64,000 bases of DNA from Anaerohalosphaeraceae bacterium. Its GTDB lineage: Bacteria > Planctomycetota > Phycisphaerae > Sedimentisphaerales > Anaerohalosphaeraceae. Location: contig CAXXSL010000001.1 in NCBI GenBank assembly GCA_963675525.2, positions 224,001 through 288,000 on the forward strand, read 5' to 3'. The position numbers and the translations under genes were made by a program. This document shows, piece by piece, positions 2,957 to 34,207 of this stretch. The notes under the pieces are model-generated. The model was not told the origin of the DNA. It saw nothing but the letters and a program-made list of their open reading frames with translations, and ran no database searches. Every line of letters starts with the position of its first letter. Positions within the stretch are counted from its first letter, which is position 1.

Positions 2957-5362
2957 TTACATTCCCGTGAGCCACCACTGGGCAAAGTCCGCCAAATCCT
3001 CTAAATCAACATCATTGTCAAGATCGATATCGCCTGGAATTGGTTTTTCAGAAATCGCCTGTACCGAGGCACTTGAACCGTATTCCAAAACAAACGTACC
3101 GCCGCCGGAAGGAAAAAACCCCGTTTGTTCGCAACTGGGCCGGACGCGAAGCAGCGGATCGGTGTTCTGCCATGGGTAGCTCCCGTCACCGTCAACCGTA
3201 ACAGGGCCAATGTAATATAAAAGATCAGTGCCGGGAATCGTCGATACAAAATTAAAGGCCAGGTTCGCCCCGATCGTGAAATCGAAAATTCCCTCGTTCT
3301 GGCTTGTCTTGCTGAGTGTCATCTGACCCATGGAAGGAAAGTATGGGTCCGGCGTTAGCGTCACATCGAAAAACGATTCGGTCATGCCGCCGCTGAAAGT
3401 TACGCGAACAGGTTCGGTGCTGACCAGGTTCAATTCGACCAGTTCAATATCGATTGGCGCCGGCGGGTCGAACGTCTCGGCGTCCTCCATTCGCTCAATA
3501 ACCGTATCGGCCAGGTTCGTGGATGGGTTAACTGGTTTTCCTTTCATGGCAATGATACCATCAAAGGGGTCGGAGCCGGGGCCGAAATAATCGGCAGGCA
3601 GCGGTCCAAAGGGCGGTGCGCCGAAATCAAATTCGGCTGAATAGGTCAGCCAGTAGTCAATACCCGCCGGCACAGGAAGAAAGTATGACGTTTCACAAGT
3701 CCGAATTCGAATCGTTCCGGTTGTCGTTCCTGTATAGCCGTCGAGTTGACTTCCGGGTGCCCCGGTAAATTCGATCTCGTATGTAATGTCAAAGAAACTG
3801 TCCACGGCAAAATCACCGCTGGGCAATTCCGTCAGAGTCGTCTGACCCGAACTGGGCAGGCCCAGGTCGGTGCCTGCGCGGAAGCGTAATATGTTAAAAT
3901 CCGGGTCGCCCAATAGTTCACCCTGCAGGCGGAACCAATCCGCGTCGAACGTTTGTACAGGGTCTCCGGGATTACGTGGGCCGGTATGGACTTCGCAGGT
4001 GATGGGAATAGAGAGACTGCGGTTGTAGCCCGCCAGGCTTCCGGTACCGTAAAGCGGAGCATCAAACGTGGCGTCAAATTGCTGGACCTGGCCGCCAAGA
4101 GAGCCTCCGGCAAAACGAAAGATATTCAAAAAGTCCTTGATAACGCCGTCGATTTCCATGGTGGTTCCGGGTGGCAGACCGTCTATGATATGGTACGTAT
4201 CATCATAGCCTGCGTATGTACACCCTACGGGAGGTAAGTCTGCGGTACCGGTACCATTATCGGGTACGATACAACAGTAAGCAAGGACTGTCATCTTACC
4301 GGCATTGCTGCTGGCGTAACCATCTTCTGAGCCGTCACTGCCGTAACCGGCATTTTTATCACAGTACAGCCAGGTCGTTCCCGTATCAGCTGAAAAGCGA
4401 TAGGCGTAATCATAATCACCGGGACTGCCCGGTGTTGTAAGTGTTCCCATATATTCATCATTGCCCGGCTCGGAAGCATCGTTCCATGCAGGATTAATCG
4501 TTGCCGAAGTCCAGACCCATGATGCGTCCGTCGATGGATCCGTACCCACAGTCCCGTAGCCGACTCCGGCCTCAAGATACACGGACGGATCACTGCCGCT
4601 GGTTCGGGTTGTGATTCCCGGCGCATACACGTGTCCATAGACAGTCACGCCGGTTCCGCTGGTTTCTTCAATCGTTAAAGGCCATTGCAGCCGGCCCCAG
4701 TCAGCGCTGTACGCATCGGTCTTCACATGAATGGTTCCGGTTGTCGTTCCTGCGTATCCGTCGAGCGGGCTCCCAGGTGCCCCGGTAAATTCGATCTCAT
4801 AGGTAATGTCAAAGAAACTGTCCACGGCAAAATCACCGCTGGGCAATTCCGTCAAACTGGTCTGGCCCGGACCGGGCGGACTTAAAGATGGATCGAGACG
4901 AAGGCGAAAATAATCGAAATCCGGGTCGCCGCCAAATTCACAATTCAGGTATATGAAATCCGAGTCGAACGTTTGCACGGGGTCTCCGGGATTTCGTGGG
5001 CCCGTATGAACTTCGCAGACCATGGGGATAGATAGAGTGCGATTGTAGCCCGCCAGGCTCCCTGTGCCATAAAGCGGGGCGTCAAAAGTGGCCTCAAATT
5101 GCTGGATCTCACCGCCAAGAGTGCCGCCGCCAGTACGAACGACATTGATAAAGTTCCTGATCACGCCTTCGATTTCAATCGTGGTTCCGGGTGGCAGACC
5201 GTCTATGATGTGGTACGTGTCAGTATAGCTTGCGTACGTGCAGCCATCGGGAGGAAGGTTTGCGGTACCCGACCCGTTATCCGGCACGGTGCAGCAGTAA
5301 GCCGGGATTGTCAATAAACAAAGCGAAACGATGAACACATGAAAGAAATGGTTGCGTTTCAT
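2957..5362 (-). CDS. Secreted multidomain protein with two 190-aa internal repeats and a C-terminal dockerin-like motif
   Basis: Signal peptide, RBS AAGGAGG, duplicated CCxVPDNG...FAVDSFFDITYEIEF domain, C-terminal GDIDLDNDVDLEDLADFAQWWL. Confidence 0.8.
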   Translation of the reverse strand: MKRNHFFHVFIVSLCLLTIPAYCCTVPDNGSGTANLPPDGCTYASYTDTYHIIDGLPPGTTIEIEGVIRNFINVVRTGGGTLGGEIQQFEATFDAPLYGTGSLAGYNRTLSIPMVCEVHTGPRNPGDPVQTFDSDFIYLNCEFGGDPDFDYFRLRLDPSLSPPGPGQTSLTELPSGDFAVDSFFDITYEIEFTGAPGSPLDGYAGTTTGTIHVKTDAYSADWGRLQWPLTIEETSGTGVTVYGHVYAPGITTRTSGSDPSVYLEAGVGYGTVGTDPSTDASWVWTSATINPAWNDASEPGNDEYMGTLTTPGSPGDYDYAYRFSADTGTTWLYCDKNAGYGSDGSEDGYASSNAGKMTVLAYCCIVPDNGTGTADLPPVGCTYAGYDDTYHIIDGLPPGTTMEIDGVIKDFLNIFRFAGGSLGGQVQQFDATFDAPLYGTGSLAGYNRSLSIPITCEVHTGPRNPGDPVQTFDADWFRLQGELLGDPDFNILRFRAGTDLGLPSSGQTTLTELPSGDFAVDSFFDITYEIEFTGAPGSQLDGYTGTTTGTIRIRTCETSYFLPVPAGIDYWLTYSAEFDFGAPPFGPLPADYFGPGSDPFDGIIAMKGKPVNPSTNLADTVIERMEDAETFDPPAPIDIELVELNLVSTEPVRVTFSGGMTESFFDVTLTPDPYFPSMGQMTLSKTSQNEGIFDFTIGANLAFNFVSTIPGTDLLYYIGPVTVDGDGSYPWQNTDPLLRVRPSCEQTGFFPSGGGTFVLEYGSSASVQAISEKPIPGDIDLDNDVDLEDLADFAQWWLTGM
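3710..5299 (-). repeat. Intragenic direct repeat: 4730-5299 and 3710-4279 (570 nt each)
   Basis: Two colinear, equal-length copies with long identical stretches such as aatgtcaaagaaactgtccacggcaaaatcaccgctgggcaattccgtca. Confidence 0.9.
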
Positions 5363-21754: not shown

Positions 21755-22420
21755 AAGCCCGTAGGGCTTGTGACAATAATAGCCGCGGGTGGAGGGAGCT
21801 AAGCGACCGGAACCCGTGGATAAGGGGCAAGCAACAACGAACCGACCCTGTAAGGGTCGAATAAAGGAGGCAATGTGGCTACCTACACACAAATATTATA
21901 TCACATTGTTTACGGAACGAAAAACCATCAGACCACACTTGATCTCGAACGCCACGATGACTTATGCCGCTATAAGGCGGGTATTCTACGAAACAAACAT
22001 TGCATTGTTTATAAAGTGGGCGGTCATGTTGACCATCTTCATGTCCTGACAAGTTTACATCCATCGTTGGCGTTGGCCGGTTTGGTAAAAGATGTCAAAC
22101 TTGCCGCGTCTGGTTGGATTAAAACCGACAAAGTATTTCCGCAGTTCAGTGGCTGGCAGGCTGGTTATGGGGCTTTTACCTGTTCATGGAAAGACAAAGA
22201 TCGGATTATGAAATATATCGAAAATCAGCGAGAGCATCATCGACACAAAACATTCCGAGAAGAATATATTGATATGTTGCAAAAGGCAGGGATTGAATTC
22301 GATGAAAGATACTTGGCCTGATTCGACCCCTTTAGGGTCGATGGACGTGTAGTATTCAATTAACCACGGGTTCCGCTTCGCTCCACCCGCGGCTATTATT
22401 GTTTGAATCCCTACGGGACT
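21755..22420. mobile_element. RAYT-like locus: transposase flanked by ~100-bp inverted composite REPs (21755-21862 and 22321-22420)
   Basis: Left flank acaataatagccgcgggtggag...cggaacccgtgg...cgaccctgtaagggtcgaat is the reverse complement of right flank attcgacccctttagggtcg...ccacgggttccg...ctccacccgcggctattattgt. Confidence 0.85.
21875..22321 (+). CDS. tnpA: Y1 HUH transposase (IS200/IS605 TnpA family; REP-associated, RAYT-like)
   Basis: YHIVYGTK, HVDHLHVL (HUH), WQAGYGAF, YIENQREHH; RBS AAGGAGG. Confidence 0.92.
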   Translation: MATYTQILYHIVYGTKNHQTTLDLERHDDLCRYKAGILRNKHCIVYKVGGHVDHLHVLTSLHPSLALAGLVKDVKLAASGWIKTDKVFPQFSGWQAGYGAFTCSWKDKDRIMKYIENQREHHRHKTFREEYIDMLQKAGIEFDERYLA

Positions 22421-29301: not shown

Positions 29302-29436
29302 TGCACCAATTCTTGAACGAACTGTCTTTGATTAAGGGTCTCATCATAAATTCAAACGCCCCAAAACGCAAGCTGTGAGGGTAAAATATTGATAATTGTA
29401 AATTTTATAGTACCGATTGTATCATCCTTTTTAAAA

Positions 29437-29947
29437 ATGGGTTCGGTTTGGGTTCGGTTTGGGTTTGATTGGGTTCGCGTGGCGCTATTAAAAAGGGGGG
29501 TGTTGCCTCCGTTAGGGGGTTTGAGTGCAGTATAATGCATTGCTGTCGAGGGGCTACTTGGGGCTTAAATTGGGTTCGTTTTTTTGGGGGTTGACGGGGT
29601 AAAAAGGCAGTCCATCGTCTATAGTCCTTAGTCTATGGATAAAAATCGTGGATTTTGGGCTGAAAACGGGGTGCGAGAGTAGGGGGTACTTGGGGCCTAA
29701 ATTGGCTTTGGTTTGGGTTTGGTTTGGGTTCGTATTTGTAGGGGAAGTCCTTAGTCCATGGTCTTTAGTCTTTAGGGAAAAAACGTTTACGGTGATTTTG
29801 CTTGCTTGAAAATTGGGTTCGTTTTGTAAAAAACAGTCTTGAGACTTTAGACCTTAGTCCTCAGGGATCTGATTTCCTCCGGATGGCTATTTAAATAGAT
29901 CCTTCGACTGCGCTCAGGATGACGTGATTGGGTTCGTTTTGAAAAAA
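29437..29947. repeat. Cluster of TGGGTT(C/T)G repeats (10-11-bp-phased tandem blocks plus dispersed copies) and AGTCYTT-like heptamers
   Basis: Copies near 29438-29477, 29570, 29700-29733, 29811 and 29927; heptamer runs near 29609, 29746 and 29835. Confidence 0.8.
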
Positions 29948-30103
29948 AGCATTGTTTTAAAATACTAACTTCCCTTTGAATTGACACTTTGGGCGGGATT
30001 ATCGTGTCGCTGCCGCTCCATGCTTTTGTTCGATTCTTCAGTCAATTTTCAAATAACACTTCAATTTTCCTGCCGCCGCCAAGGCTATGGCACGGCAAGG
30101 CGT

Positions 30104-30131
30104 ATTATACCATAAGTTAGATGAATGTCAA
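30104..30131 (-). promoter_or_regulatory. Consensus sigma70 promoter TTGACA-16-TATAAT with extended -10 (copy A)
   Basis: The plus strand reads attata-ccataagttagatgaa-tgtcaa; a near-identical copy lies at 62462-62489. Confidence 0.75.
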
Positions 30132-30544
30132 ACAAAATGTAATTTTAAGTTCTTAATTTTTTTGTTTTGAATTGAGGAAGCCCTTCGGGCGGGTATTTAA
30201 ACAGATCCCTCGACTGCGCTCGGGATGGCCTGCGGTCATTTTTTTGGTTTTCTCTTGTTTTGGGGGGGAAATGGGGGGGGGTATAATTGGGGGGCATCTT
30301 TGAAGAAGGACATTTTCAACCACGAATGGACACCAATAAACGCTAATAAATGGGATTTATATAAACTATGAAGGTCTTGAAGGATTTTCACGCGAAACAG
30401 GGTTAGAGGGCGGCAATCCGAAGGACGAATGTCGATTGACGAAGGACGAATGTTAGTTAAGAACTCGGGAACTCAGGACAGGATTATGAATTTTGAATTA
30501 TTGGGAATGGCGGGAGAGGAGAAAAAGGTGTCTGACCCCTTTAA

Positions 30545-31111: not shown

Positions 31112-31723
31112 GTGATGAAGAAGAGAGCTGGTTTTTGTCTTTTATTTATTCTTTGCCTTCCGATGGTCTTTGCCGGATATACCGACGGCTATATCGCAGA
31201 TGGTGAATACGAATGGGGCGTTGATTGGCTTAGTGGTTTACTTATTGTCGATGAGGGAGGGGCTCAGGAAATCTCAGTAAGGAATTCTGCTCGTTTGGAG
31301 GTTTTGTCAACAAGTACACCACTAGCACTCGGCGTGGGCGGGATAATGGATATCGGGCTTAGGGATTATAGTCATTTGGATTATTATGGTGGCCAAACAC
31401 AAGAACTCACGGTACGCCAGAATGCCACGGCCAATCTTTACGGTGGGCGAATTGATGGCATCTCCAGTTTTCAATATACCACAACGACACACATAAATCT
31501 TTATTGTCAGCCCGGCTGGTCGTGGATTTTGGACGGCACACAGAAAAAAATCGGCATTATGGGTTTGTGGGAAGACAACACCAGCTTTAACATCAGTTTT
31601 ACTACCAACGGAGAATACTTCGGTTACCCACCCGTCTGGACTAATATCAACATCGTCCCCGAACCGGCAACGTTGACTTTGTTGGGGCTGGGTACTCTGT
31701 TGATGCGAAAACGGAAACGGTAG
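31112..31723 (+). CDS. PEP-CTERM protein
   Basis: Signal peptide; C-terminal VPEPATLTLLGLGTLLMRKRKR. Confidence 0.92.
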   Translation: MMKKRAGFCLLFILCLPMVFAGYTDGYIADGEYEWGVDWLSGLLIVDEGGAQEISVRNSARLEVLSTSTPLALGVGGIMDIGLRDYSHLDYYGGQTQELTVRQNATANLYGGRIDGISSFQYTTTTHINLYCQPGWSWILDGTQKKIGIMGLWEDNTSFNISFTTNGEYFGYPPVWTNINIVPEPATLTLLGLGTLLMRKRKR

Positions 31724-31895
31724 GCAGATTCCATATTGTTTGCCGCCGCGATGAGCGATTAGCGAACGGCAAACATCAAACAGTTCTGCCGGAATAAACA
31801 ATGAGTATAAGCCGAGTGCGAAAATGTGCTCAGCTTTTTTCATGAGCCGAATGGTACGCCCGACCCCTTTTATTTCCCTGGCGAGACAAGTTGCC

Positions 31896-32670
31896 GAATG
31901 AGGATTGTTTTATTCGACCCCTGCGGGGTCGGGGGTTGTGTGATTGTTTTCCCTTTGGGCTTGTGGAATTTTTTGATATTTATGTCGCCCGCTGCGCGGG
32001 CTCACAGAGGGAGGGGTTGTGATTTTGGTCCACGGGCTGGCACCCGTGGCTACAACATGGCGTCTGCTGCGCAGACTTTTGATGGTCGATGGACGAACAC
32101 GGACGGTCATGGACCCATTCGGCTACGCTCAGGACAGGCTCCATGGACGGGGTGGACGTTTCGATTTTCTATGGACGAATGAGGATTGTTTTGTTCGACC
32201 CCGTTGGGGTCGTGGGGGTTGGGGCGTGATTGTTTTCCCCGGGTTTCGCCCGGGGCTATTATTGTTCAAGCCCGTTGGGCTTATACATGCCCACGCAAGC
32301 GTGGGCATGGCACCCGATGGTTACGGGTTCGACGCCTGGGGCTATTATTGTTTAAGCCCTGCGGGCTTATTGGAATTTTTCTGATATTTATGTCGCCCGC
32401 TGTGCGGGCTCACAGAGGGAGGGGTTGTGATTTTGGTCCACGGGCTGGCACCCGTGGCTACAACATGGCGTCTGCTGCGCAGACTTTTGATGGTCGATGG
32501 ACGAACACGGACGGTCATGGACCCATTCGGCTACGCTCAGGACAGGCTCCATGGACGGGGTGGACGTTTCGATTTTCTATGGACGAATGATGATTATTTT
32601 GTTTGACCCCGTTGGGGTCGTGGGTTGTGTGATTGTTTACCCCGGGTTTCGCTGGCGCTTACCCGCGGCT
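31896..32670. repeat. REP mosaic array with a ~250-bp near-identical duplication (31964-32216 / 32371-32624)
   Basis: Three copies of cgaatga.gatt.tttt.tt.gacccc...ggggtcg and two near-identical long units; hairpins related to the RAYT flanks. Confidence 0.88.
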
Positions 32671-32749
32671 GTTATGAGGCCATCTTACAAGTCTTATATT
32701 TTAAAACCAACAATTTTTTTGTTTTTTACTTCATATCGATATTCCTTGT

Positions 32750-32905
32750 CTTTCAAGATTGATCGCTCAGTCTGTTATTCGTGCTCGAAGCACACGTTAA
32801 TCGATTCGTTCTTCCTGAGGTGCCGCCAACAATCTACAATCGTGTTCAAGACACAAGCCTCGGGCCGTGGTCGGCACGTCGTGGTGAGCTTCAATCCATT
32901 CGTAT
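32750..32905 (-). ncRNA. Putative IS110 bridge/seek RNA (boundaries approximate)
   Basis: Two stem-internal-loop-hairpin modules whose loops match the target site and the donor junction (see findings). Confidence 0.7.
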
Positions 32906-32910
32906 ACTGT

Positions 32911-33993
32911 TTAAGCTTTTTCCGCCCGATAGGGTTCATTTTTTATCAACATGCGCCACAGATGCACGGTCAGTTTTCGAGCCACCGCAGTGATCGCTTT
33001 CTGTTTGATACCCCCATTGCTGTGACAAATCCGCCAAAAGTATTGTTTGGCCTTAACATCAACGGCAACCCACTGCCATGCGGCTTGAATGAGTGTGCAA
33101 CGAAGGGACGGCTTCCCGTCCCGATTGATGGGGCCGGATGTACTTTTTGAACCGCTTTGATGGATCGTCGGGGCCAATCCGACATATTTGACCACTTGGC
33201 AGGATGTCTCAAAATGGTCATAGTGGAACACTTCCGTAACAAACTGTCGTGCTGTCACCGGTCCGATGCCGGGATGTGTTTGAAGTAATGCAATCCGCTG
33301 GCCGGTTGGTGTTGACCCCATCCTTTCGTCCAGGAGACGCTCAAGCACCGTCAGTCTGTCAGAATGGTAGTCCAGGTCGCTGAGTAACGCGTCCAGTGAC
33401 AAACGTAATGGCTTTGGCAGCCGCAAGGCTCGGAGGGCGTCGATGCTTTTACCAGACCAATATTTGAGCCCTTCCGGTTCCGTCAGCCCGTGTTGTAATA
33501 AAAATGACTTGATTTGAGTTTTGACACAGGCTCCGTTTTTTCGTTGACGATGCCGCATCCGGCACAACTGTCGGTCCCCCTCCTGCTGGACCGAAGGAAT
33601 GGTCACCGGTTTGAGGAGCCCCTTGGCCAGATAACACGCCAGTTTTTTACTGTCCAGGCGATCTGTCTTGTCCTCTTTGGCGGCCGGCCGGGGCGTTTTA
33701 GAGGTGGCCGCAATAGTCACGGGCAGATGGTGTTTTTGTAAGGTGCGAGCCAATGAATAGCCCGTGGGCCCGGCTTCGTAAACAATCTCTTTGATGGCGT
33801 GCTGGACCGGTTTGAGCTGTTCAATAAGTTGATTGGGATTCGACGGCATGACAAAATCAAGAGCGGGGGTGTCGTTTAAGTGCAGCGCGACATGATACGT
33901 TTCCTTATGGGTGTCAATACCAATAAACAATGCATCGTTACGGGTTAAACGGATAGTGTTGAAAAATGTCTGTACCTTTGATAGACTACGCAT
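32911..33993 (-). CDS. IS110-family transposase/recombinase
   Basis: DEDD residues (GIDTHK, YEAGPTG, KTDRLD) and C-terminal PGIG...GLAP..QSG; ATG at 33993 follows AAAGGA. Confidence 0.95.
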   Translation of the reverse strand: MRSLSKVQTFFNTIRLTRNDALFIGIDTHKETYHVALHLNDTPALDFVMPSNPNQLIEQLKPVQHAIKEIVYEAGPTGYSLARTLQKHHLPVTIAATSKTPRPAAKEDKTDRLDSKKLACYLAKGLLKPVTIPSVQQEGDRQLCRMRHRQRKNGACVKTQIKSFLLQHGLTEPEGLKYWSGKSIDALRALRLPKPLRLSLDALLSDLDYHSDRLTVLERLLDERMGSTPTGQRIALLQTHPGIGPVTARQFVTEVFHYDHFETSCQVVKYVGLAPTIHQSGSKSTSGPINRDGKPSLRCTLIQAAWQWVAVDVKAKQYFWRICHSNGGIKQKAITAVARKLTVHLWRMLIKNEPYRAEKA

Positions 33994-34207
33994 GGGCCAT
34001 CCTTTCGATAATGGTTCCGGTTTAGGGTTCAAAAACCATTATAAGAACTTTTGGATGGCCTACATATTATCTACAACATGACGTCTGCTGCGCAGACTTT
34101 GGATTATCGATTGACGAATGACGAATTATGATTGGGTGGGATTTTTCTGTTTAAATAGATTCTTCGCTTTGCTCGAAATGACAATTAAATGGTGGGCATG
34201 GCCCACC

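Follow-up and report, generated by a model that had tools for sequence, protein, structure and literature searches.

A multi-copy IS110-family element from a planctomycete genome with a probable bridge RNA that matches its joined ends as well as its REP target

Bridge recombinases are programmable tools for DNA insertion, and their mechanism has been worked out almost wholly on IS621-like enzymes, from whose clade one human-cell screen also took its candidates (10.1101/2025.05.14.653916). Handshake guides have been described for these systems (PMC11208158), and in wild-type IS621 they form one base pair before strand exchange and three after it (PMC13626964). The ends of IS1111-type elements are defined by inverted repeats of 11-13 bp with a 7-bp extension on the left and a 3-bp extension on the right (PMC11187229), and donor nucleotides lying in a multiloop have been noted for many IS1111 orthologues (PMC11208160). 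For elements with subterminal inverted repeats, the seekRNA study (PMC11187229) left the question of whether they use RNA pairing to recognise their own ends. More recently, 86 models have been used to predict the guides of 32,190 bridge RNAs (10.64898/2026.10.21.760802), a set that may include the clade described here.

The window, by which we mean the whole 64,000-nt stretch of DNA that was analysed, contains a multi-copy element of the IS110 family whose predicted downstream RNA probably pairs both with a REP target and with the joined ends of the element itself, with insertion at a CT dinucleotide. Judging from the sequence comparisons set out below, we place the probability of this reading at about 0.85. 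The element occupies positions 32671-34072 on the minus strand, or 1402 bp when one copy of the 2-bp CT core is counted. Its right end (32671-32690, minus strand) comprises a 3-bp extension (32671-32673), a subterminal inverted repeat (32674-32684) and a -35 hexamer (32685-32690), while the left end (34054-34072, minus strand) comprises a 7-bp extension that includes the core, a subterminal inverted repeat (34054-34065) and a -10 hexamer (34064-34069). The inverted repeats are thus 11/12 bp long with a one-base indel between them, and the extensions measure 7 bp on the left and 3 bp on the right. The non-coding DNA is unevenly distributed, with 240 nt downstream of the recombinase gene against 79 nt upstream.

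Eight full copies in the genome, at 99.9-100% identity, share these ends and differ in their flanks; the element has spread recently. Five of them do not differ at all; in two the gene has gained one base and in one the right end has lost one base, and these indels in three copies may be sequencing errors. In all eight, insertion is specific for site and orientation around the short core and leaves no target duplication. What remains in a partial copy of 449 bp (G000:C13:311054-311502) is the left end with the first 137 codons of the gene, still adjoining the right half of a REP. Neither the circle joint formed by abutted ends nor an empty-site joint was seen in four contig sets, drawn from 18 listed runs, and contigs drop rare forms. 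A 217-aa open reading frame on the plus strand across the right junction has no Pfam match and is taken as spurious. The first-pass annotation had described a complete IS110-family element, and the intact recombinase, the defined ends and the eight full copies bear this out; all seven sequence motifs that it quoted, and both junctions, lie where it placed them.

The recombinase gene (32911-33993, minus strand) encodes 360 amino acids from an ATG placed from the ribosome-binding site and the lengths of homologues. The product matches Pfam PF01548 and PF02371 above the cut-off, and an alignment of 70 close relatives shows no variation at its DEDD residues (D27, E73, D111 and D114) or at S280. 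Database searches gave 1049 relatives at E <= 1e-30 among 8000 candidates scored, and those with named records come mostly from Planctomycetota bins, which makes a host of this phylum likely. A scan of a collection of genome contigs with the single protein returned no relative, whereas alignment-based scans did. In a midpoint-rooted tree of 38 rows (from which IS1111, IS621, ISEc21 and IS110 themselves are absent and L014 dropped out, and to which no one-clade test was applied), the clade of the element comprises 18 rows with support of 100/98; its sister, at a weak 85/67, is ISEc45 with ISSso6, and IS4321 and ISEc11 fall outside the clade. By BLASTP, the closest named bacterial elements are those of the ISEc45/ISSso6/ISCARN28 branch (110 and 120 bits); the enzymes of solved structure, IS621 and ISCro4, are matched at no better than E ~3e-4. 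Membership of IS1111 in the narrow sense of PMC11187229, that is, full-length relatedness and clustering with IS1111, was not found. With the IS1111 group the element shares the layout of the ends, the longer non-coding region downstream and the order of guides with the top-strand match first, an order reported for IS1111-type seekRNAs (PMC11187229). The earlier label "IS1111" therefore holds for the ends, the RNA position and the guide order, but not for a recombinase that branches near ISEc45/ISSso6, outside core IS1111. By sequence, the element is a member of the IS110 family in the broad sense whose ends are of IS1111 type; it would work like a bridge recombinase, without being a narrow-sense IS1111.

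The core of the predicted bridge RNA, of about 142 nt (32756-32897, minus strand), is delineated by folding, by an alignment of 63 relatives and by a search with a model built from that alignment, R1, which recovers it in all eight full copies. Across the 63 relatives, 95.2% of the structure is paired, against 15-45% in slid controls. A target-binding loop (32820-32877, minus strand) is formed by a stem (32867-32877/32820-32830) around a small hairpin (32842-32854), and compensatory changes occur in eight of the nine stem pairs and three of the four pairs of the inner hairpin. On the minus strand, this loop presents the left target guide at 32856-32864 and the right target guide with its handshake bases at 32832-32839. 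The donor-binding module (32770-32801, minus strand) carries a weak left donor guide (32795-32801), a hairpin (32781-32793) that hardly varies and is better conserved than any other part of the RNA, and the right donor guide with its handshake (32770-32778, minus strand). The donor guides lie in a multiloop because the 5' segment of the RNA (32885-32897, minus strand) pairs with the segment just after the right donor guide (32756-32769); this long-range closing helix is paired in 94% of alignment cells, only two of them doubly changed, and in the fold of the window's element it extends to 12 pairs. RNAalifold placed no stem closing the donor module in the alignment of relatives. In place of the IS621-type donor loop with a stem of its own there is thus a multiloop with a long-range closing helix, and the "second module of the same shape" proposed earlier shares the inner hairpin of the target loop but is closed only through 32885-32897/32756-32769.

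The single sequence is less telling, as its fold is not significant (z of -0.69 over 240 nt and -1.51 over 143 nt) and its minimum-energy form pairs the target guides internally. R1 found no named reference element in the 14 loci searched, of 10 named and 5 unnamed plasmid elements, and Rfam gave no match up to E 1 within 32600-34150. In many of the relatives L015-L110 the bridge RNA is preceded, after the stop codon, by a short motif that is conserved, and in some by an additional hairpin; the window's element and L014 have neither. Insertions of 10-70 nt are seen in the inner hairpin of the target or donor module in L005, L003, L072, L079 and L085 with the guides intact, and by sequence they mark positions that would tolerate additions.

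REP-RAYT systems consist of hairpins with a GTAG-like foot that are scattered outside genes, and of a Y1 transposase gene flanked by inverted copies of them. The repeat interrupted by the element has these attributes, namely hairpin sites and two PF01797 genes in the genome flanked by inverted copies of the same repeat. One of these, the Y1 tyrosine transposase gene at 21875-22321 (PF01797 above the cut-off), lies between inverted REP copies at 21779-21819 and 22364-22396 (21779-22396 as a whole, plus strand); we take it to be a RAYT, and it is the likely source of the REP family. The genome has 12 PF01797 matches in all, several flanked by other hairpin repeats, which suggests several REP families. 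Dense extragenic repeats at 29430-30460 and 31890-32660, around a PEP-CTERM gene (31112-31723), comprise 11-bp tandem units, a 408-bp duplication of REP clusters and other dispersed repeats.

On the plus strand, the left half of the interrupted REP and the CT core lie at 32640-32670 (hairpin arms 32640-32646 and 32662-32668, core 32669-32670), as judged from the sequence and a comparison of flanks, and the core with the right half at 34071-34080. Three empty REP copies of the same cluster occupy 32021-32470 (plus strand), with target 7-mers at 32043, 32249 and 32451, and the same right half follows those at 32043 and 32451. All eight full copies sit at CCC[GA]NGG-CT-A within one REP-like family, in one orientation and at the same CT, followed by ACAACAT in five and ATTATT in three. 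That the element targets a REP family had been claimed from the window's copy, and the check that this called for, on the sites of the other copies, put all eight in the same repeat family. With the element copies removed, the target pattern occurs 46 times in the genome against 12.3 expected, with the partner arm of the hairpin present at 33 of the 46. The left guide matches six of seven bases at each of the eight occupied sites, and in seven of them the mismatch falls on the variable base of the REP hairpin arm. The match of eight in nine between guide and REP noted earlier is present at its place; no REP copy is matched perfectly, and the 11-mer that would be the perfect site of the guide has no occurrence in the genome. 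The guide of IS621 likewise differs from its usual target (PMC11208160).

The target rebuilt from the window's copy may be a hybrid of two REP subtypes, as a subtype B flank on the left meets a subtype A flank on the right. It is conceivable, though we regard it as rather unlikely, that these flanks stem from different REPs and that the empty site so reconstructed never existed, owing to a deletion between neighbouring REPs after insertion or to an assembly mis-join at the 1.4-kb repeat. The pairing of a B left with an A right is found in two of five occupied but one of 19 empty B-left sites (Fisher p 0.10), and no contig in the four sets spans the element. On the other hand, one empty hybrid site does exist, the other six copies have concordant flanks, and both halves match the guides whichever subtype is considered. 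A synteny check of the assembly was uninformative, since the gene beside the element has other, differing neighbours in two genomes of the same genus. A misassigned flank would in any case be compatible with a bridge RNA that pairs with the REP.

How specific are the guides? In 3000 dinucleotide shuffles of the reverse complement of 32691-32910, the left-target match of eight in nine arose 8 times, the 8-nt right-guide match 9 times and an 8-nt right-donor match 26 times; the three together never arose (0/3000). Stronger evidence comes from the relatives. We examined 105 loci at 33-100% identity, of which 99 had enough downstream sequence and 87 were parsed, 12 of the 99 remaining unparsed; the set L111-L171 (mostly ~24-40% identical, with many partial) was left out of the covariation tests. 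Ends were set by end motifs and guides by their position next to a conserved hairpin, and a parse required AG[AG]T to follow the target hairpin and a donor-like motif to follow the donor one. These required motifs partly build in agreement at constant positions, and only the variable positions therefore count.

For 59 distinct left guides from 73 loci, the mean match to the element's own target was 5.54 of 7 bases, against a shuffled mean of 2.74 and a maximum of 3.34, so that none of 10,000 shuffles was as high; six of the 59 match their own site at three bases or fewer. Right guides (65, from 75 loci) matched 3.31 of 5 bases against 1.57 on shuffling, the signal residing in the three core-adjacent bases (0.97, 0.92 and 0.66). 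Kin among the relatives are not independent, yet their targets vary widely even between close relatives. Nature has, in effect, reprogrammed these elements, with other guides sitting at other sequences that match them, and the guide-target covariation across homologues that had been put forward as a check is borne out for both the left and the right guides. In passing, the insertion-site flanks of L005 resemble, by eye, the 3' half of a tRNA gene, and its right end is one base short.

The donor side needs more careful weighing. The right-donor match reported earlier as CTGTTAT is present and is 8 nt long rather than 7. The left-donor match of five in seven, already called weak, is present too, but at chance level; it is meaningless alone because 2758 of the 3000 shuffles give it. 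In the window's element, the left donor guide matches four of five bases and then mismatches at the second core base. Across relatives, the right donor guide equals the right end of its element, or is one G-T wobble off, in 69 of 69 distinct elements, and of the 120 ways to pair guides with ends over five end types, the true one fits best. For the left donor guide, the match was 3.2 of 5 bases against 2.31, a value reached by 17 of 40,320 pairings of eight types, with the signal mainly at donor positions 4-6. These figures come from hand-curated tables resting on five (right) and eight (left) types in which kin are not independent; they replaced an earlier automatic table that mis-parsed several ends and gave no right-donor signal (1879/20,000).

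The handshake adds to this picture. The right target guide extends by two bases, 32832-32833, which match the donor end and would constitute the handshake guide. These bases match the left end of the element, being AT here and GT or AA in relatives with such ends, and over four types the true pairing is the best of 24 (1/24), L200 being a clear miss and two others half matches. In 55 of 68 elements, the window's included, the donor handshake begins with A, and in 11 of the other 13 its first base matches target base 7. For the window's element, one Watson-Crick pair is counted before strand exchange and three after, the pre-exchange pair being the one that this A would form with donor base 7. 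In IS621, a mutation to A at the corresponding position crippled the element in E. coli (PMC11208158). The rules of the present clade may differ, or the weak left donor guide may offset the effect.

An improbable alternative to donor pairing is that the RNA picks the target alone, as a seekRNA, and the protein reads the ends through the subterminal inverted repeats, the donor matches being vestigial or serving excision only. For four IS1111-type elements the predominant RNA is a short one of 70-100 nt that carries the target part only, and such an RNA is enough for ISEc11, with end recognition left open in that report (PMC11187229); here, moreover, the inverted repeats are well conserved, the left donor guide fits poorly and the donor variation amounts to few events. 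Yet the right donor guide follows its end through all five types with wobbles as the only departures, the left one changes with its end at donor positions 4 and 5, and no part of the RNA is better conserved than the donor hairpin. The view that the REP hairpin itself, as a DNA structure or through a bound host protein, directs insertion with the RNA match secondary is barely credible: the absence of copies from 12 non-REP sites of the same 11-base pattern (against 8 of 8 in REP-like sites) and a guide without a perfect match in the genome would suit it, but eight REP-like sites in eight would arise by chance at 0.07 (34 REP-like among 46), and relatives with other guides occupy other sequences matching those guides.

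Joining the ends yields the promoter-like junction TTGTAA-17-TAATAT, exactly as had been proposed, and TTG is kept at the -35 place in 68 of 71 distinct right ends. A predicted 5' leader hairpin (33995-34061, minus strand; -23.3 kcal/mol) pairs the left inverted repeat with an inner copy (33995-34002) over the ribosome-binding site (34000-34006). The inner copy is present in most relatives, and an inner inverted repeat is also described for IS1111 elements. The hairpin would dampen translation, as a structured leader does in ISPpu9 (PMC12288879). Metatranscriptome contigs cover 32703-32954 with no differences and 32756-32988 with four; both RNA assemblies come from one study, may hold DNA and give neither strand nor ends, and they offer a weak hint that the predicted RNA is expressed. 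In the two RNA runs, no contig covers the remainder of the recombinase gene, a gap from which nothing can be concluded.

Taken with the work on IS621 and ISEc11, on which the following steps are modelled, a bridge mechanism can be outlined. The ends of the element would join into a circle, and the junction promoter would transcribe the recombinase gene together with the RNA, with translation held down by the leader hairpin. In the target loop, pairing would involve 7+2 bases of one strand and ~3+2 of the other; in the donor module, with its multiloop, it would involve 5-6+2 bases of one strand and only ~4 of the other. The handshake bases, with one Watson-Crick pair before exchange and three after, would tip the reaction towards insertion. 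A mismatch at the variable base of the REP arm would be tolerated, so that one guide would serve all REP variants. For a different element, CazIS110-1, copy-out movement and a truncated target-loop RNA have been reported (10.1101/2025.10.25.684509).

Further variety is seen among the relatives. In L008 (~3120-3407), L231 (2716-2765) and L232 (2573-2631), one to three extra modules with a target loop only lie behind the donor module. These are three of 94 loci with a parsed right end; they are 33-36% identical to the present element and have right ends of 500-900 nt. The last module in each matches the flanks of the insertion no worse than the first does, and the others have variant guides, where the extra loops of L231 and the main loop of L008 were read by eye. 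Further searches for array-bearing relatives added none, and a phrase search of the literature returned no paper on such target-loop arrays. A doubtful idea is that the lineage is a modular bridge system, with one multiloop donor RNA and swappable target loops, in which the window's element would be the minimal one-loop form and the three arrays its extended forms, and in which a donor-pairing handshake base would mark exchange rules unlike those of IS621. If true, L008, L231 and L232 would be natural split, multi-guide recombinases. L215, with L098 as probably the same element, has lost the stretch between its two identical hairpins, which leaves the left target guide fused to the right donor guide; its gene has an in-frame stop, and it is either a dead copy or an assembly artefact. 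An orphan donor module with the right end of an L002-type sister element lies at G000:C16:533456-533633, with no recombinase gene adjoining.

How, then, does the element compare with known systems? It resembles ISEc11, ISKpn4 and ISPa11 in its downstream non-coding region, subterminal inverted repeats with 7- and 3-bp extensions, junction promoter and guide order, and ISPa11 in particular also targets REPs (PMC11187229). It differs in that the recombinases of ISEc11 and IS4321 are only 26% identical to it over partial alignments (44 and 63 bits), those of the ISEc11 type have 330-350 amino acids rather than 360, and R1 has no match on the ISEc11 and IS4321 loci. The ISEc45/ISSso6/ISCARN28 branch stands at ~27% identity and has a C-terminal insertion that the present element lacks, and R1 has no match on the ISEc45 or ISSso6 locus; ISCARN28 has a predicted bridge RNA (PMC11208160), and the order of names in a figure legend would place it in the IS1111 group. 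The literature searched, some of it accessible in part, yielded nothing specific on the clade of the element beyond two unnamed tips in the tree published with PMC11208160 (rows 978-979 of its Supplementary Table 1), whose domain sequences look, by eye, like those of the clade and whose rows give no ISfinder name, ends, target or RNA. The earlier description as "uncharacterised" is thus apt as regards experiments, none of which were found in the literature, but two clade members were already tips of that tree.

With IS621 and ISCro4 (PMC11208160, PMC11208158, PMC13626964), the element shares the CT core, four guide segments around two small hairpins, the handshake of one and then three pairs, a REP target cut beside a CTAC-like foot and a guide that mismatches its natural target. 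It differs from them in a very distant protein (E 2.5e-4, C-terminal half only), an RNA downstream of the gene, a gene opposite to the target orientation, donor guides in a multiloop and a pre-exchange pair on the first donor-handshake base. It is likely an untested member of the known class of programmable bridge recombinases. As a recently spread representative of a distant clade with more than 1000 relatives, and with readable guides, ends and targets, it makes a ready test case for end recognition, where the present comparison favours the recognition of own ends by RNA pairing.
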